Both the position numbers and the translations under genes were made by a program. Source: a virus. From it: a DNA stretch of 64,000 nt. Under the pieces are notes generated by a model, which was not told the DNA's origin, made no database searches, and saw only the letters and a program-made list of their open reading frames with translations. Shown in pieces: positions 37,999 to 55,438 of the stretch (positions within the stretch are counted from its first letter, which is position 1; each line of letters begins with the position of its first letter). The stretch lies in IMG/VR virus record IMGVR_UViG_3300025895_000123; one strand, 5' to 3'.

Positions 37999-38508
37999 TT
38001 ATTCCTTAACATTTTGATCGTTATTACATTGACAGGTGCACGAATAATTACATTGACAGGTGCACGAATAATAACAATTACACGTACACGAATAATTACA
38101 TTGACACGTACATGAATAATCACAATTACACGTACATGAATAATTACACTGGCAAGTGCATGCTTCAATTTTCTCTTCTTTGATAGTTTCTCCAGAGTCA
38201 ATCTCATATTTATTTAATAATAATTCTATTTTCTCCAATAAATCAGGAAGTAATTCAACAACTTCAAGAATTTCCTGCACTGCCTTTATAAGTAATGGAG
38301 AGAATTGACTATAATCAACTTTAAGATGCCCTGTTTCTGAATCTCGAGTAACTATCGAATATTCTTCTGACCTGAATACTTTCATTAAATCTTGTGCTAT
38401 TACGCCAAAGAAAAATCTTTTATCAGAAATATTCTCAGAATGTTTATCCAAATCATATTTAAATTTAACTACTTTAAAACGTTTAACTAACTCTGAATAT
38501 TGCCCCAT
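37999..38508 (-). CDS. S74-like chaperone domain fused to CxCxC(N/D/Y)Y repeats
   Basis: FGVIAQDL..VDYSQFSPLLIKAVQE then 5 full and 1 partial xCTCxCxY repeats; lacks the N-terminal SDxRLK. Confidence 0.75.
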   Translation of the reverse strand: MGQYSELVKRFKVVKFKYDLDKHSENISDKRFFFGVIAQDLMKVFRSEEYSIVTRDSETGHLKVDYSQFSPLLIKAVQEILEVVELLPDLLEKIELLLNKYEIDSGETIKEEKIEACTCQCNYSCTCNCDYSCTCQCNYSCTCNCYYSCTCQCNYSCTCQCNNDQNVKE

Positions 38509-38553
38509 AATTTACCTATTTAAAGATATTCAACCTCCATTTTAAGTAATTCA

Positions 38554-39279
38554 TCAGTAGTTACAATTGCAAGTACATGCGTAATTACATTGACAAGTAC
38601 ATGCGTAATTACATTGACAAGTACAACCATAGTTACATTGACAAGTACAACCATAATTACATTGACAAGTACATGCGTAATTACAATTACAAGTGCACAC
38701 ATAATCACATTGACAAGTACATGCGTAATTACAATTACAAGCACATTGGGATTCAAAAGTATTAACTCCCGATCGTAGGCTTTCTATTTGTTCGTTCTGT
38801 ACTAAATCCCCTTCCTCTAAATTTGTAAGATTTAATGATGCATGTGCAGACCAAGGACCGAACAAATTTAACGCTGTTCTCATTGCTATAATTGTGGCAT
38901 TATCTACAGTTCCTCCAACGGAAACTGCTGCAGGAATGCTAGCACCTGCAGATCGTCTAACATTTTCATTAGCAATTGCCGTTCTTAACTCATTAATGTG
39001 TTGACTTTTAATAGGAACACCTGTAAGAGAAGGATCAGTCCAAGAAGTTGGAGTCACTGGAGCAATTTTTCCAGCATGGGATGGACAACCTAATGTTGAA
39101 TGAACAGGACAACTACTTGTCGCTGTATGTGCTGCACAAATTGTCGTTGCTGAATGAGATGTACAAGGTGTAGTATTACTGTGTGCTGTACAAGTTGTCG
39201 TTGCTAAATGAGATGTACAAGTTGTCGTTGCTAAATGAGATGTACATTGTGAGGTACTCGAATGATCTGTACAAGCCAT
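38554..39279 (-). CDS. Cys-repeat protein A (8 CxxH + central domain + 8 CxCxC(N/D)Y)
   Basis: GGAGG RBS; central PIKSQHINELRTAI domain; tandem repeats at both ends. Confidence 0.85.
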   Translation of the reverse strand: MACTDHSSTSQCTSHLATTTCTSHLATTTCTAHSNTTPCTSHSATTICAAHTATSSCPVHSTLGCPSHAGKIAPVTPTSWTDPSLTGVPIKSQHINELRTAIANENVRRSAGASIPAAVSVGGTVDNATIIAMRTALNLFGPWSAHASLNLTNLEEGDLVQNEQIESLRSGVNTFESQCACNCNYACTCQCDYVCTCNCNYACTCQCNYGCTCQCNYGCTCQCNYACTCQCNYACTCNCNY

Positions 39280-39324
39280 AATCTTCCTCCAAAATTTTTA
39301 TTATGAACACTCAATATTCTTTTA

Positions 39325-39612
39325 TCAATAGTTACAATTGCAAGTACAAGAATAGTTACATTTACAGGTACATGCATAGTTACATTGACAAGTACATGCA
39401 TAGTTACATTGACAAGTACAACCATAGTTACATTGACAAGTGCACGAATAGTTACATTGACAAGTGCACGCATAGTTACAATTACAGGTACATGCATAGT
39501 TACATTGACAAGTACAACCATAGTTACATTGACAAGTGCACGCATAGTTACATTGACAAGTACATGCGTAGTTACATTGACAAGTGCACGCATAGTTACA
39601 ATTACAAACGCA
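39325..39612 (-). repeat. 24-nt coding tandem repeat (12 units)
   Basis: ACATTGACAAGTACATGCATAGTT-type units encoding xCTCQCNY; related runs at ~38020-38160 and ~38555-38745. Confidence 0.9.
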
Positions 39613-40248
39613 TTCTGATTCAAAAGTATTAAGTCCTGATCTTAAACTCTCTATTTGTTCATTCTGTATTACATCCCCTTCTTCTAAATTTGCAGGGTCT
39701 AATGATGAATGTGCAGACCAAGGACCAAACAAATTCAAGGCGGTTCTCATTGCTATAACTGTAGCGTTATCTACAGATCCTCCAACGGAAACTGTACCAG
39801 GAATAGTAGCTCCTGCACTTCTTCTAATATTTTCGTTATTAATCGCTGTTCTTAATTCATTTAGATGTTGAGCTTTAATTGCAACACCTGTAAGAGAAGT
39901 ATCAGTCCACGAAGTTGGGACTATAGCAGGAATATGTCCTGTACAACCAGATACTGGTCCTGCTGTGTGTGCTGTACAAGCTGTCGTTGCTAAGTGTGAT
40001 ATACAAGCTGATGTCGCTGCGTGTGCTGAACAAGGAGTAGTATTACTATGTGCCGAACAAGTTGTCGTTACTGAGTGTGATGTACATCCTGAATTAACAT
40101 GGCCACCACAAGTTGTTGTAAGTGAATGTGATACACAAGCTATAGTATTACTGTGTGCTGCACAAGTTATCGTCGCTGAATGAATACCACATGCACCAGC
40201 GCTATGAGTACCACAAGATGTCGTACTTGTGTGATTATTACAAGCCAT
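39325..40248 (-). CDS. Cys-repeat protein B (12 CxxH + central domain + 12 CxCxCNY)
   Basis: Paralog of 38554-39279; AIKAQHLNELRTAIN domain. Confidence 0.85.
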   Translation of the reverse strand: MACNNHTSTTSCGTHSAGACGIHSATITCAAHSNTIACVSHSLTTTCGGHVNSGCTSHSVTTTCSAHSNTTPCSAHAATSACISHLATTACTAHTAGPVSGCTGHIPAIVPTSWTDTSLTGVAIKAQHLNELRTAINNENIRRSAGATIPGTVSVGGSVDNATVIAMRTALNLFGPWSAHSSLDPANLEEGDVIQNEQIESLRSGLNTFESECVCNCNYACTCQCNYACTCQCNYACTCQCNYGCTCQCNYACTCNCNYACTCQCNYSCTCQCNYGCTCQCNYACTCQCNYACTCKCNYSCTCNCNY

Positions 40249-40265: not shown

Positions 40266-41423
40266 TTAATTCTTTACAATATGATTTAAAGCTTTCATAA
40301 TTCTACCGTTAATTTTATAAAATCTACAAAGTATTGGTTGGTTTGCATAATCTCTCCACTTCTCAATATAAGTATCTTTATCACTTTTTTCATACTTAAC
40401 TGGATTACACCGCAAACAATACCCAGCTTCACAATCAAGGCATTCTAAAGGCTGATAGCCAAAATTTGTATCGTGCAAAATATGAGAATCAACTAATTTT
40501 TTTATAAAATCTGAATCTTTTAAATTAGAAACAATATGATCATCAACTTTATCGTCATAAACACTTCCATGACATTTATAAATTTTTCCACCTACTCCAA
40601 TACAAACCATATCTCTTCCAGCAGAACAGAGAGCTTTATTTGGAGTAAACCAAGCAAAAAAGAATTGATTATTGTTCTTTTTATAAAATTCTATATCTTT
40701 CGTTGCTATCTCTGTAAGTGCATTTTCTAAATCTACACAATATTCATCAATTTCATTTTCATTATACTTACCCAAATGATAATAATCAATAGTTGGAAAA
40801 TAATTATTAGCATGAAAAAATTGTTGTCCTGAATGTCTCTCATAAATATCTCTTATATCATCATAAGCAGCAGGTAAATATTTAAAAGCATCAAGAGTAA
40901 CAGTAGATTTTATTGTACTTGGAATTCTATGTTTGTAAACACGAAAAATATTATCTCTAACTCGAGTCGAAGTTAAAACTCCATCTTTTCTAACTCGATA
41001 AATATCATGTATTGGCATTCCATCATACGACATTTGAATGCAAAATTTAGGATGTCCACCTTCAATAAAAGTGTCTTTGAATTTAATCAAAGAATCCCAT
41101 ACACCATCTAAATTATAACCATTACTAAAAATAAAATATTTAACTCTAGAGTTATTTGCATAATAATTCACAATATAATTTACAGTTTTATGAGCTAGTG
41201 TAGGCTCACCACCCCATAAACCAATATTTAATGCATCATAATGTTGTTTGAAAAAATCTGAGTCTAATAATTGATTTATTTTATTAATAAATAGATCAAC
41301 ATCTTTAAAGAATGTATTTCTAAAATGTCCATCTTCAAAACAATACTTACATCCAAAATTGCAAGAATCTGTTAGTGTTAAATCTATATTATATATACGA
41401 ACTTGACTAAAATTTTTACCCAT
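40266..41423 (-). CDS. Radical SAM/SPASM peptide maturase-like enzyme
   Basis: CNFGCKYC, WGGEP, CSAG..YKCHG..CLDC..CLRC. Confidence 0.88.
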   Translation of the reverse strand: MGKNFSQVRIYNIDLTLTDSCNFGCKYCFEDGHFRNTFFKDVDLFINKINQLLDSDFFKQHYDALNIGLWGGEPTLAHKTVNYIVNYYANNSRVKYFIFSNGYNLDGVWDSLIKFKDTFIEGGHPKFCIQMSYDGMPIHDIYRVRKDGVLTSTRVRDNIFRVYKHRIPSTIKSTVTLDAFKYLPAAYDDIRDIYERHSGQQFFHANNYFPTIDYYHLGKYNENEIDEYCVDLENALTEIATKDIEFYKKNNNQFFFAWFTPNKALCSAGRDMVCIGVGGKIYKCHGSVYDDKVDDHIVSNLKDSDFIKKLVDSHILHDTNFGYQPLECLDCEAGYCLRCNPVKYEKSDKDTYIEKWRDYANQPILCRFYKINGRIMKALNHIVKN

Positions 41424-41438
41424 TTTATCTCCACAAAC

Positions 41439-42443
41439 CTAAAATTGACTGAATTTCTTATTTGTTGCTTTATCTGCGTAAGATATACCAGTTGTTGGAG
41501 ATAAATAAGCATTACCAACACCCATACTCTTATCACAACGACCACAAGGTTCACATGTTACCCCACAAAAGGGAATACCATATAATGAATATACATAATT
41601 CAAATAAGGTCGTAATTGCGATCTCAAGATCTCCGTGTAACCTACAGGTCCAACAGAATCTAGATCTTGATGTGCAAAACTAAGAGCCACTTTATCACAC
41701 ATAGGCCATCTTTCACAAATTTTAATCATATCTTCAACAACATTATTATAATTTCCAGATTGAACTGTGTAACTCATACTAAAAAACACATTATGCTTAA
41801 CAAGATTATCAACTGCTCGTTCAACATGTTCTTTAGAGCTAGTTCCATTAGGAAATTTTCTACGAAAGTGACCTGACCCATCATAACTTACTTCAATACT
41901 AATATTTACATTGTTACTTTCGGCAAACATCTTTAATTCTTTATATTGTAGAATTAATCTTTCATCTAGGAATAAAAGAGCATTAGTTGTTATTGGAATA
42001 GCCCAACCTCCAGCCTTAGATAAAGATGAAACTTTTCGAACTAAATACTCATAAAGATCAAATCTTAATAAAGGTTCACCACCCATCACAACAATACAGG
42101 AGTTTAAATCCCCTTCTCTTTCATATATTTCATTTACAAAAGTATCTAACATTAATTCAGAACAATTAGCTTGATCGGAAAGACCTTGACGACTATCTCC
42201 TTCATAACAATATTCACAACGAAGATTGCAATTAGTGTTCAAATAAACAACATTAGTTCTTGTTGTTCCTTTTCTATCATTAACACTTTTCGATAATTTT
42301 TTTTGTTTATGTGTTATATTATCTTGATTGCATCCTTGTCCATCGCTACATGATTGACAGACTTCGCATGATAAATTTTTATCACTTAATATATCTTTAA
42401 TATCAATCATAAAAGTTTTTACATCTCGATTAGTAACATTCAT
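41439..42443 (-). CDS. Radical SAM enzyme with Cys-rich N-terminal extension
   Basis: CNLRCEYC, MGGEP; N-terminal CEVCQSC..C; C-terminal CGVTCEPCGRC. Confidence 0.85.
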   Translation of the reverse strand: MNVTNRDVKTFMIDIKDILSDKNLSCEVCQSCSDGQGCNQDNITHKQKKLSKSVNDRKGTTRTNVVYLNTNCNLRCEYCYEGDSRQGLSDQANCSELMLDTFVNEIYEREGDLNSCIVVMGGEPLLRFDLYEYLVRKVSSLSKAGGWAIPITTNALLFLDERLILQYKELKMFAESNNVNISIEVSYDGSGHFRRKFPNGTSSKEHVERAVDNLVKHNVFFSMSYTVQSGNYNNVVEDMIKICERWPMCDKVALSFAHQDLDSVGPVGYTEILRSQLRPYLNYVYSLYGIPFCGVTCEPCGRCDKSMGVGNAYLSPTTGISYADKATNKKFSQF

Positions 42444-42977
42444 TTATTGCTTTCCCATTTTAGAACGAATTTTTGAAACAAGATCCTGAACATCTTTTTC
42501 TATTTCATCAGATGCTTTACCAATAGCTTGTCCTGTTGCATCCTTGCCATGAATAGGGCAATCACAATCTACAGATTGTCCTGTTGCATCCTTACCATGA
42601 ATAGGACAATTCTCATCAACTCCAGCATGATCAATACACATTGTTGGTGGAGCATCTTGATGTCCACCACATGAACTATCAGCAAAAGTTCCATGCCCAA
42701 CACAAACTTGATCCTTTCCTAATCCTGATTGAGATGCTTCATTTGTGTCTGTAAAAGCTACAACATTTACACTATCAACAACCTTTTCTTTTGCAAGACT
42801 TGAGGGTTTTTGTTGCTGACAACATTCAACAATTCTAAGAAGTTTGTCTGCAACAAATAAACATATGTCACTAAGACTCTTATCGAATTTTTCTAAATCT
42901 TTTGCCACATTAAACATCATTTGTGATGAATTAAGAATTTTATTTTGGTCCACTATTTCGCCTCCATTATCCAACAT
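42444..42977 (-). CDS. Protein with five CxxH motifs (possible substrate or accessory protein)
   Basis: CVGH, CGGH, CIDH, CPIH x2; duplicated CPIHGKDATGQ. Confidence 0.7.
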   Translation of the reverse strand: MLDNGGEIVDQNKILNSSQMMFNVAKDLEKFDKSLSDICLFVADKLLRIVECCQQQKPSSLAKEKVVDSVNVVAFTDTNEASQSGLGKDQVCVGHGTFADSSCGGHQDAPPTMCIDHAGVDENCPIHGKDATGQSVDCDCPIHGKDATGQAIGKASDEIEKDVQDLVSKIRSKMGKQ

Positions 42978-44085
42978 TTTGAATAGATCCTTTTACCATT
43001 TCTCTGAATAACTCATTATCCTTCAACTCATGAACAATTCTTATAGACTGTTTATATAATATACCTAATAATTCGCAAATACTTTCTACTGGTTCACAAT
43101 AGTTAGCATTTGGTTCGTCGGTTTTCAATTGCTGGTAAGTACACCCAGCATTACAATACTGATATAATTCGCAATTTTTACACTTTTCATAGGTTCGAGG
43201 ATTAGATACTTGTGGAGATCTCATAATTTCAATAGTGTCCCCATATTCAATGTCTTTTACTGAATCATATAATGCATGAACATCATTCGATCCAAATCTT
43301 GCACATGGGTAAACCATACCATCAGGCATAAAGCCGGCACCAGTACATCCAGCAAAACATCCAAAAGGTCTTTTACCGTAAGTAGCACCAAAAAGTAGAT
43401 CTAAAATATATAATTGAAAAAACCCAACAGTGGTTCTTATACCACTTCTAATATATTTTATCATTTGGTCTGCAAGCTTTTCTGCCTGAATTTCAAAATT
43501 TTTGATATCATATTCTGACCAGATATTATCTCTAACCAGAGAATAATCTGGACTCAATATATTAAACTCTTCAACAAACCATTTATAATTATCAACCAAA
43601 GTGTCTACACTCTCAGGTGATACCATTACTTTACAACCACCTGTCCCTTGAAATCGAGATTTAAGAGGCTCTTTCATATAAAGATCTAAGCTAGAACTTC
43701 CATCTTTAAGGGGTCGATTATTTTTATTCCATAATCCGTCGAAAGATAGCGAAATCGCTAAATTGTTTCTTTTAAAGTATTCCCACTTTTCATCATCCAC
43801 AAAAGCTAATCCATTTGTCATCGCTATAATAAGAGTACATCTAGAATCTTTTTTTAAGATAGGAGTAATATATTCAATTAGTTCCCAATTTAATAATGGT
43901 TCTCCACCAAATAAAGCAGCATGAAATTTATTTTGACCATACCTCTTCATCATTTTTGGTAAAGTGTTATAATAATGTGAATCAAAAACAGCTGGAGTCA
44001 TATCTCTTGGCTTTTGATTAATATAACAATACGTGCACGCCATATTGCATCTTTCTGTAAGTACTAATTGAAGTTCAAATGACAT
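42967..44085 (-). CDS. Radical SAM/SPASM peptide maturase-like enzyme
   Basis: CNMACTYC, FGGEP, CFAG..YPCARF..CKNC..YCNAGC. Confidence 0.9.
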   Translation of the reverse strand: MSFELQLVLTERCNMACTYCYINQKPRDMTPAVFDSHYYNTLPKMMKRYGQNKFHAALFGGEPLLNWELIEYITPILKKDSRCTLIIAMTNGLAFVDDEKWEYFKRNNLAISLSFDGLWNKNNRPLKDGSSSLDLYMKEPLKSRFQGTGGCKVMVSPESVDTLVDNYKWFVEEFNILSPDYSLVRDNIWSEYDIKNFEIQAEKLADQMIKYIRSGIRTTVGFFQLYILDLLFGATYGKRPFGCFAGCTGAGFMPDGMVYPCARFGSNDVHALYDSVKDIEYGDTIEIMRSPQVSNPRTYEKCKNCELYQYCNAGCTYQQLKTDEPNANYCEPVESICELLGILYKQSIRIVHELKDNELFREMVKGSIQNVG

Positions 44086-52872: not shown

Positions 52873-54114
52873 TTATTTCACTTCTTGCACTGAAACCTTA
52901 ACATTGCTCGATTCAGTTAATTCTACATAAAATATATTATCATCAAAATATTCAACACCTACTAAATCTTTTTGCCAAAATCCAGTAACCGGATTTTGTA
53001 CCATAATATTAATTAATAAATCTTGGGTATTAAGATTATGAATAATGGTGTGAAAAACAGAAGGAGTTATTGATTCATATTTATAAGTACTAAGTTTTGT
53101 ATCACCCCAATTGAGGACAGTTAGTTCACCACCCTCAATTCCAATTCTCCATGTATCATCCTCTTCATCCCATAGTAAAAGTGCAGCAGGGAGAGATCCT
53201 CGATTTACTCGTAAACCAGCAAATCTCCCTGTTACACCAGAATTAAGCTCATTTGCATTGAGCATAATTTCTCTATCATCAATTTCGACATCATCGGATT
53301 GTAATAATATTCTTTCGCCTTGGGCTTTAAAAATTCCTTGAATAGTTAAATCTTCTGCTACTTCAAGATCATGTGCAATATAGACATTTTCACCATTTAA
53401 TGATGTGTCACCTCCTACTTCTAATCCTTCAGAAATAACAACATCATCAGTGATAATAGTTGGATTTGTAGTGGACGGAGTTCCACCACCACCAGTAGGT
53501 ACTTCAAACTTATCAAGGAACCAATTAACATAACGCAAAAGCGCTATATTATCTTCGCTTAACCCATATTTATAGTAATTCTTTTTTCCGATCGAAGTAT
53601 CTATTTCAATAAACTCATCTGTTGATTCTGTAATAGAGGTCAGATCGTCCTCTACATCTTTAGTAAAATCAAAGAACGTTAGTACCGTAGCATTTCTATT
53701 GTGATCCCAGCCATCCGAGGATATTCCTGTCTGGGCGATATGTTGAATTCCAAATCGTACAGGGTTGTCTTGAACGGTGTTTAAATATTGGTATTGAATA
53801 TAAACTGCAAATTTACCATCTACATCGTATACATTACCATCAGACAGGATTAATTCAGTTGTAGACCTTATTTCGATCAATGTATGGTTCTGTATTACAA
53901 CGCCATCACTAATCTCAACAACAACATTATTACCATCTAATGAAGCAGTCACATTCAACCCTTTTAACACTACATTATTACCAATCATTTTTGATAAATT
54001 ATTAATAATTACTGGTAATTGATACATGTAGTTTGAAGCATTGACTTGGGAGTATTCGCTGAGATCAATGTATTTACTAGCGTCGCTAGGTCTTCGTAAA
54101 TCAGCCATAATCAC
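52873..54114 (-). CDS. Baseplate/fibre-attachment protein, paralog of 54155-55438
   Basis: Shared N-terminal domain; LLWDEEDDTW module; C-terminal HTIIHNL. Confidence 0.65.
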   Translation of the reverse strand: MIMADLRRPSDASKYIDLSEYSQVNASNYMYQLPVIINNLSKMIGNNVVLKGLNVTASLDGNNVVVEISDGVVIQNHTLIEIRSTTELILSDGNVYDVDGKFAVYIQYQYLNTVQDNPVRFGIQHIAQTGISSDGWDHNRNATVLTFFDFTKDVEDDLTSITESTDEFIEIDTSIGKKNYYKYGLSEDNIALLRYVNWFLDKFEVPTGGGGTPSTTNPTIITDDVVISEGLEVGGDTSLNGENVYIAHDLEVAEDLTIQGIFKAQGERILLQSDDVEIDDREIMLNANELNSGVTGRFAGLRVNRGSLPAALLLWDEEDDTWRIGIEGGELTVLNWGDTKLSTYKYESITPSVFHTIIHNLNTQDLLINIMVQNPVTGFWQKDLVGVEYFDDNIFYVELTESSNVKVSVQEVK

Positions 54115-54154: not shown

Positions 54155-55438
54155 TTACGGTGCAGTATAATTACAATTACAAGTACATCCATAATTACAA
54201 TTACAAGTACAAGCAACAGGTTCAACGAAAAATTCAATCTTTGTCAACTGGCTTAAAGGGGTATGACTTGAAATATATAATTTACCAATATCATCATCAA
54301 CACCAATAACACCAATTTCTGATCCAGAATTTCGAGACAAATTCGGATCTTCACTTAATATTACACCAGTAGCACTTTCAATCCAAACCTTTCTTTGAAC
54401 TTGGCCTTCAGTCCAAGATACCCTCATCTTAGTTGGTCTATATCCTGTAGCCCAACCTCTACCTTCGACATCTAAGATTAAATAATCTCTTGATGCCTGT
54501 AAAGTGTAAAATACATCCGTCCATAATCCACCTTCAACAATTCCCCAATAATTTGGACCCATAAAATTATCAAAGAAAGGAACGGTTGTAAAATATTCAT
54601 TAGAATTTAAACCTATATCTGTTAAATGAACATTTCCATCACGGAATATTTGATTAAAATCTTTAAGAAATTGAGGTAAACTAGATTCATTATCTATCGA
54701 TAATGAACTGACATCAAAAAATCCTTTCGATCCCAAATTATTTGTTCCATAATATTTTGCGGCACCAGGAGATTCTACATCTCCTTTAAGAATTATTCCT
54801 TCACTAGGATCGAGTATAACAGAAGACCCGCCAGCTAATTCAAACAACTGATGAATTAAATATCGAGTTAAGACTCTATTTTTATCACTATAGCCTCGAA
54901 CCCAATAAACAACTCCATTAATTGTTATGTATTCCTCGAGTGATGGAAAAAAAGAAATTACATTATCTCCTCCATCCTTAGTAAATTGGTATATACCCAG
55001 AAGTAAACGATCTCTACTGGCCATAAATGAATATAGCGGATTCCCTGTTGGATCAATATAGTTAATGTTGAAAGAATGTTTATTCTGTTCAAATGTTTGT
55101 AGATAATTATAGTTACTAAACACAACGACTCTGCCCGATTGATCCAGACCAGACACACCGTCTAATTGAAGGTCTACTCTCTCATCTGTAACTAAAAGTG
55201 TATTATCTTGTAGAGCATTTCCTTCCTCCACACTTAGAACAACAGAATCAGATGAATAAGAGATGTTGGTAAGTTCTAAACCACTCATTACTATGTCATC
55301 ACCAAAAACCTTATAAACTGAATTTGCTACCCTACTCAAAAACACATCACTTTTATCAGTATCATACTGAAACACTCTTTGATCAAAAGGTTCAATAAAA
55401 TGCCTTTGAGAAGATGGTTCGACAACCCTGTTTGCCAT
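54155..55438 (-). CDS. Baseplate/fibre-attachment protein ending in two CTCNCNY repeats
   Basis: Paralogous N-terminal domain; ILKGDVESPGAAKYYGTN; terminal ACTCNCNYGCTCNCNYTAP. Confidence 0.7.
   Translation of the reverse strand: MANRVVEPSSQRHFIEPFDQRVFQYDTDKSDVFLSRVANSVYKVFGDDIVMSGLELTNISYSSDSVVLSVEEGNALQDNTLLVTDERVDLQLDGVSGLDQSGRVVVFSNYNYLQTFEQNKHSFNINYIDPTGNPLYSFMASRDRLLLGIYQFTKDGGDNVISFFPSLEEYITINGVVYWVRGYSDKNRVLTRYLIHQLFELAGGSSVILDPSEGIILKGDVESPGAAKYYGTNNLGSKGFFDVSSLSIDNESSLPQFLKDFNQIFRDGNVHLTDIGLNSNEYFTTVPFFDNFMGPNYWGIVEGGLWTDVFYTLQASRDYLILDVEGRGWATGYRPTKMRVSWTEGQVQRKVWIESATGVILSEDPNLSRNSGSEIGVIGVDDDIGKLYISSHTPLSQLTKIEFFVEPVACTCNCNYGCTCNCNYTAP

Follow-up and report, generated by a model that had tools for sequence, protein, structure and literature searches.

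Among the closest described systems is CrpA of Methanococcus voltae, a 28.8 kDa protein whose C-x-x-Q/D repeats are cross-linked through ranthionine-type thioethers by the SPASM enzyme CrpC (PMC13692751). The locus described here is alike in that C-x-x-acceptor repeats occupy the C-terminal part of a full-size protein rather than a peptide (PMC13692751). By contrast, CrpC carries an RRE and binds CrpA through a leader-like region at the substrate's N-terminus, whereas two of our three enzymes (enzymes 1 and 3) are without an RRE. The repeat is also shorter (8 residues here, 17 in CrpA), and here a 19-residue tag sits on an unrelated folded protein in a viral system. PapB, which acts on PapA (freyrasin), and the ranthipeptide and sactipeptide maturases are alike in their repeated Cys-to-acidic/amide cross-links within short repeats. 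Their PapA-type substrates, however, are small, leader-dependent secreted peptides, whereas the protein here is a receptor-binding protein, and our enzymes score 57-128 bits against a cut-off of 340. The anaerobic sulfatase maturases (anSME) are RRE-less radical SAM/SPASM enzymes that read a short motif in diverse full-length proteins; they differ in their target (C/S-x-P-x-R) and in their product, formylglycine. On the side of the carrier, receptor-binding proteins with a TssK-like shoulder (those of the lactococcal phages p2 and 1358 and the fibre of Haloferax tailed virus 1) have the same layout of a shoulder followed by a sugar-binding-type head, but they share no sequence similarity with the protein here and none of them is known with a Cys-repeat C-terminal extension. 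A full-text literature search found no paper in which virion proteins are modified by radical SAM enzymes or stapled by thioethers; one cyanophage study in which both radical SAM and thioether occur (PMC12801897) concerns an unrelated sugar/'antibiotic' gene set and was set aside. What is new at this locus is that two units of the repeat, kept by selection, stand on a receptor-binding protein unrelated to the array proteins and far from the enzymes, which makes this tag a candidate for a natural minimal substrate.

The window, by which we mean the whole 64,000-nucleotide stretch of viral DNA analysed, encodes on its minus strand a 427-aa protein (54155-55438) with the C-terminal end ...KIEFFVEPVA-CTCNCNY-G-CTCNCNY-TAP. 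The reading frame terminates in ...KIEFFVEPVACTCNCNYGCTCNCNYTAP and a stop, and the 60 bases at 54155-54214 are exactly the 19 codons of this tail plus the stop codon. The parts of the gene and its untagged neighbour are as follows.

54839..55438, minus strand: N-terminal shoulder domain, residues 1-200, probable baseplate-docking domain, common to 52873-54114 (model pLDDT 79)
54587..54838, minus strand: central linker, residues 201-284, with a ~40-residue motif at 206-250 (low model confidence)
54215..54586, minus strand: C-terminal CBM-like beta-sandwich, residues 285-408, probable receptor-binding head (VIA-align)
54158..54214, minus strand: C-terminal tag, residues 409-427, A-CTCNCNY-G-CTCNCNY-TAP, two Cys-repeat units (pLDDT ~33)
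54155-54157, minus strand: stop codon of the 427-aa gene
52873..54114, minus strand: untagged neighbour of 413 aa, same shoulder domain, different C-terminal part (sequence alignment)

The tag consists of two units of the octad that makes up three array proteins at 37999-40248.

39325..40248, minus strand: Cys-array protein, C-terminal array of 12 units (unit pattern and translation)
38554..39279, minus strand: Cys-array protein, C-terminal array of 8 units (unit pattern and translation)
37999..38508, minus strand: 5-6 Cys units joined to what remains of an S74 chaperone domain (PF13884 in Pfam, profile positions 18-53)

The identity of tag and array repeat, already proposed in the preliminary description, is borne out by the DNA. 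A 21-nt degenerate unit, TGYACNTGYMANTGYRAYTAY, has 24 matches in the window, every one on the minus strand (four in 37999-38508, seven in 38554-39279, 11 in 39325-40248 and two in the tag), against a chance expectation of none in 100 dinucleotide shuffles. Beyond the three array genes and the 427-aa gene, no other open reading frame in the window carries the Cys-repeat motif. The separation of tag and arrays is ~14 kb, as had been described, and the nearest enzyme gene lies ~10 kb from the tag. Within the tag we count four C-x-x-N/D motifs, two overlapping in each unit (C-T-C-N and C-N-C-N). The tag comes right after the folded beta-sandwich with no leader before it, and it is without the conserved helix (I..A..[IL]N......C) that directly precedes the repeat in the array proteins. 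In the tagged orthologues it is followed by TAP, SAP, AAP, GL or NPL and then the stop, and no S74 chaperone domain (SDxxLK...) comes after it. Since the scaffold is unrelated to the array proteins, the repeat behaves like a transplantable motif, in keeping with its earlier description as a portable tag. A homologue search with residues 388-427 only returned the query alone, the repeat words seeming unusable for that index.

The carrier had been called a baseplate-type protein, a label that sequence families do not support: the 427-aa protein has no Pfam or NCBIfam match and one weak PHROG match of unknown function, and tblastn found no relatives of it among 50,697 phage records. Its architecture was read from two AlphaFold models, that of residues 1-200 built on a 60-row alignment. 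A Foldseek search with the whole model gave low-TM, mixed beta-sandwich matches only, so that the domains were taken separately. With VIA-align, residues 1-200 match the N-terminus of the Haloferax tailed virus 1 tail fibre (9h5b_BG residues 2-180; Z 9.3, 139 aligned, rmsd 3.8), the receptor-binding protein of lactococcal phage 1358 (4l92_A; Z 7.2), TssK (Z 7.0-6.5) and the phage p2 protein (Z 5.7), and the next unrelated rows stand at Z 3.5 or below; Foldseek by itself is weak on this domain (E 0.03). The N-terminal fold lends the earlier label partial support, being that of the baseplate-docking shoulder of receptor-binding proteins and TssK. Residues 285-408 match CBM86 (6sgf_A; Z 12.1, rmsd 2.7, 114 aligned), CBM29 (1gwk; Z 10.3, with CBM29, CBM6 and CBM35 in the range 9-10) and the tail of Pseudomonas phage Pa223 (Z 8.8), a fold that by itself does not establish sugar binding by the head. 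From these models the carrier is better called a putative baseplate-anchored receptor-binding protein, a more exact name for what was roughly right, and the tag is predicted to lie at its distal end, beside the putative binding head.

The neighbouring protein does lack the tail, as had been noted, and ends in ...VKVSVQEVK. Its description as a paralog holds for the N-terminal ~165 residues (30% identity, E 6e-18) and fails for the remainder, which does not align. The shoulder domain itself is widespread, with 323 cluster representatives of 190-1787 aa in an exhaustive search; among the 150 of these that were listed, a Cys-rich end occurs in the window's own clade only. The 427-aa gene starts a run of fibre genes: the 413-aa neighbour comes next, ahead of two fibres (985 and 1197 aa, tail-fibre matches in PHROG) and two proteins with G2/S74-type chaperones, beyond which lie the radical SAM trio and the array genes.

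Two further features of the carrier family deserve mention. Residues 206-250 (54689-54823) hold a motif of ~40 residues, LDPxxGIxLxGDxxxPGxxKYYGTxxxGxKGFFD, which in a library of representatives is repeated 4-13 times in fibre-like proteins of ~300-1800 aa and is an uncatalogued fibre repeat. In addition, orthologues such as P0009 (650 aa) and L055 506-2866 (786 aa) have one, three or four tandem CBM-like heads with 30-36% mutual identity, which is head-domain multiplication in a receptor-binding protein.

We compared the tag across orthologues of the carrier, comprising 20 relatives among 5.8 billion proteins and seven loci from a metagenome scan; a scan of IMG/VR with the orthologue alignment found no orthologue, this phage group being absent from that collection. 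Six distinct orthologues are tagged, with 2-4 units: the window's protein, P0003, P0004, P0005, P0006 and a 786-aa protein (L052/L055). They include all four close full-length relatives (74-79% identity), of which three have two units and P0005 has four. The 786-aa orthologue, at 48% identity and with four tandem heads, ends in ...CSCNCNY-A-CTCDCNY-AAP. The 12 other full-length orthologues (43-53% identity) are untagged and end in FFGGTPGxxx. When five tagged genes are read as DNA, no Cys (six) or Tyr (two) is lost, the Thr in the second unit and the Asn (Asn/Asp) positions are likewise kept, and the codon changes at these kept residues are synonymous only (TGT/TGC, AAT/AAC, ACT/ACC). The four residues upstream of the tag and the 2-3 downstream are variable. 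Because the invariant residues tolerate synonymous changes only while their flanks vary, this comparison shows that the tag motif is under purifying selection.

In a maximum-likelihood tree of the first 285 residues, the tagged proteins fall in two places. The window clade has support of 100/100, and the 786-aa protein is nested at 100/100 with the untagged P0019 and the fragment P0020, which does not include the C-terminus; the untagged P0009 is sister to this 786-aa group (94/93). On this tree the history of the tag requires at least two gain or loss events. A recent transfer of head and tag together from the window clade into the 786-aa lineage was considered and rejected: the last head of the 786-aa protein is 33-36% identical to its own inner copies versus 25-30% to the window clade, and a recent transfer is therefore not indicated.

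Three radical SAM/SPASM-type genes lie 10-14 kb downstream of the tagged gene in the same minus-strand operon.

42967..44085, minus strand: radical SAM/SPASM enzyme 1, 372 aa (Pfam Radical_SAM and SPASM; homologues beside arrays in IMG/VR)
41439..42443, minus strand: radical SAM enzyme 2, 334 aa (family searches; homologues beside arrays in IMG/VR)
40266..41423, minus strand: radical SAM enzyme 3, 385 aa (end-to-end match to the model for anaerobic sulfatase maturases, with a score well short of the cut-off)

The CxxxCxxC motif begins at residue 13 in enzyme 1 and at residue 21 in enzyme 3, and the C-terminal part is of SPASM type. Because these two proteins start with the cluster motif, there is no room for a leader-binding RRE, and Pfam finds no PqqD/RRE domain in either. 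The best NCBIfam match of all three enzymes is PapB (NF047865), at 128 bits for enzyme 1 and 57 and 74 bits for the other two, against a cut-off of 340; enzymes 1 and 3 also align end to end with TIGR03942 (anaerobic sulfatase maturase) at 46-61 bits against a cut-off of 349. With scores this far below every NCBIfam cut-off, the chemistry could be formylglycine formation or something else. A predicted complex of enzyme 1 (16-row alignment, three [4Fe-4S] clusters and SAM) with the 40-residue C-terminus of the carrier reached 0.02 against a mark of 0.32, a result that counts neither way. Between the genes for enzymes 1 and 2 lies that of a 177-aa protein (42444-42977, minus strand) with a duplicated CPIHGKDATGQ and no family match; relatives have a gene of 120-173 aa at its place.

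To relate tag and enzymes, we read neighbourhoods by walking along the encoding contigs. All four tagged genomes that could be reached (the window, L004, L005 and L055/L056) have three radical SAM genes and 2-3 array genes in the same order, and in each of them these genes share one operon with the tagged gene. The idea that the tag occurs only in genomes with radical SAM enzymes is upheld on this side. It does not set such genomes apart, however: L008, which is untagged, encodes three radical SAM enzymes, two arrays and one S74 protein, and on the contigs of the untagged P0017 and P0008 the syntenic place, at which the available stretch ends, is occupied by a radical SAM gene. (The locus of the untagged P0013 stops before that place.) As far as its genomes could be reached, this phage group has the module throughout, and co-occurrence therefore cannot discriminate. 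What the comparison does show is that the tag was added in genomes already possessing the enzymes.

Does the module bring distant tags with it elsewhere? In five large independent IMG/VR phage genomes that carry it, two of them rated complete, the units are confined to the arrays beside the enzymes, and none of the five has a relative of the 427-aa protein. One isolated unit-like match (G003:126785) contains an in-frame TAA and was discarded as chance. The absence of a distant tag from these genomes marks it as a lineage peculiarity and not a general design, one that appears special to the family of the 427-aa protein.

The link between repeat and enzymes extends well beyond this group. A two-unit DNA pattern found 38 IMG/VR contigs, whose arrays carry 3-16 units and stand at the C-terminal end in every case; where the flank is long enough, homologues of enzymes 1, 2 and 3 adjoin the array in nearly all. 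At eight of these loci a complete Peptidase_S74 domain follows directly after the array (CNCNY|SDxRLKxNI...GVMAQEL), and at many others just the first 12 S74 residues are left (SDExLKxEIEY[LM]). The S74 chaperone normally cleaves itself at the Ser, so that the mature end of those arrays would be ...CNCNY. A search of 185,579 prokaryote species genomes gave no match to the pattern in its 8-residue form, and the 7-residue form finds three short MAG contigs, in one of which radical SAM homologues lie beside the array. Judged from these searches, the repeat appears essentially phage-restricted, nearly always adjoins these enzymes and is usually the C-terminal end of fibre-type proteins.

The Campylobacter Firehammerviruses connect the repeat to virus particles. 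They have CTC[DN]CNY six times in full, with a partial seventh, in a 534-aa protein encoded a few genes from radical SAM genes. In phage IBB_35 this array protein is gene 3-9 (L047 3001-4605, vB_CcoM-IBB_35), its translated mass of 60,317 Da agreeing with the listed 60,318 Da, and gene 3-9 was detected in purified particles by mass spectrometry at 2.6% coverage (PMC3322345 Tables S1, S2). The tag in the window had been put forward as the best internal evidence for an action of the system on the virion; the array-S74 fusions and the Campylobacter phage mass spectrometry are stronger evidence.

As to annotation, the same array protein in CP21_105 (L001 5371-6975) is labelled 'N-acetylneuraminate pyruvate lyase', which looks wrong, and in CP220 and CPt10 the repeat is annotated merely as a DNA 'repetitive region'.

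Our leading explanation, which we hold tentatively and as close to an even call, is that the tag makes the 427-aa receptor-binding protein a further thioether-stapling substrate of the three enzymes. In this mechanism, the three leader-independent radical SAM/SPASM enzymes would modify the Cys repeat on the neighbouring array proteins, and the 19-residue tag, as a minimal two-unit copy, would be taken as another substrate by the same enzymes. They would turn the overlapping C-x-x-N/D motifs into ranthionine-type thioether links inside the reducing host cell. Disulfides cannot form in a reducing cytoplasm. The resulting non-reducible staple may cap the free C-terminus beside the receptor-binding head, possibly spanning the chains of a trimer, and would have a stabilising role. 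RRE-less enzymes of the anSME class recognise a short motif in whole proteins, which fits a leaderless tag, and the C-x-x-N/D spacing of the tag, invariant in five orthologues, equals the C-x-x-Q/D spacing of CrpA, as a pattern match only. In favour of the tag as a substrate are the shared motif, its selection, the linkage of repeat and enzymes, the array-like C-terminal position and the virion detection of an array protein. Against it stand the missing pre-repeat helix, the persistence of untagged orthologues and the lack of a distant tag in the five module genomes; should the enzymes recognise their targets by that helix, the tag might be no substrate for them. The fuller proposition is that a 15-residue, leader-independent Cys tag recruits phage radical SAM enzymes to an ordinary receptor-binding protein, giving a thioether-stapled host-touching tip; chemistry of the RiPP type would then be seen for the first time on a protein of host recognition. 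We put this forward as possible and rather doubtful.

The missing helix speaks for another reading, in which the tag works as a clasp independent of the enzymes. Here, the C-termini of a presumably trimeric receptor-binding protein would be locked together by the six Cys of each chain, either through bound metal or through disulfides made once the cell has lysed, and the radical SAM enzymes would serve just the array proteins or some other target. The CxCxC spacing resembles that of metallothioneins, and metal-binding repeats stabilise fibre tips, as in T4 gp37. But thiol chemistry alone leaves the invariant Asn/Asp and Tyr of every unit unexplained, and the exact motif hardly occurs away from these enzymes, so we consider a clasp unlikely.

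The occurrence of an identical motif in tag and arrays within one operon invites a different thought, that the tag is a site of docking or co-assembly whose two units zip onto the Cys arrays or the CxxH repeats of neighbouring proteins and join them to the tip of the receptor-binding protein. Self-associating repeats often co-assemble, and the numbers of units are free to vary (2-4 in tags, 3-16 in arrays), as they would be for a zipper. The arrays, however, are kept in untagged relatives, so the partner is not required. Docking was one half of the idea in the preliminary description and draws no support from anything seen here; we regard it as improbable. That the tag is a functionless remnant of recombination with an array gene is already disfavoured and very improbable: tail-fibre genes recombine frequently and most orthologues are untagged, but the motif is strictly conserved with synonymous-only changes in proteins down to 48% identity and is retained in two separate branches.

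If stapling of the carrier is real, the tag is the most useful handle on it, offering a leaderless two-unit substrate on a soluble two-domain protein and implying that the motif alone, without the scaffold of the array proteins, is what matters. It would then be a portable viral cross-linking tag, and a short encoded tag for non-reducible, enzyme-made links would be of interest to protein engineers. Should the tag prove unmodified, the link between enzymes and repeat would itself need re-examination.

Finally, the ends of the array genes have features of their own. In relatives (L004, L005, L008 and L055), array proteins end in ...CNCNY-SDExLKxEIEYL (TAT TCA GAT GAA...). Both Cys-array genes of the window (38554-38560 and 39325-39331, minus strand) have an identical 2-nt loss (TCA to T) that creates a TGA directly after the Tyr, and the +1 frame still encodes an unbroken DELLKMEVEYL in the second array gene and a degenerate one in the first. 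The loss could reflect a genuine shortening of the proteins to their 'mature' end, or else gene conversion among the paralogues or recoding. In L004 (17133-17138) and L005 (17103-17108), the stop of the second array gene, after ...EVEYL, abuts the in-frame ATG of the S74-remainder gene; thus the first 12 S74 residues are split from the rest by one stop, which suggests either a trans-acting split chaperone or stop read-through. At L045 (7490-8776, minus strand), a 429-aa array protein with 4-5 units has a long glycine-rich insert (GGGGAGG-type) before the pre-repeat helix, showing that the array family tolerates large inserts.
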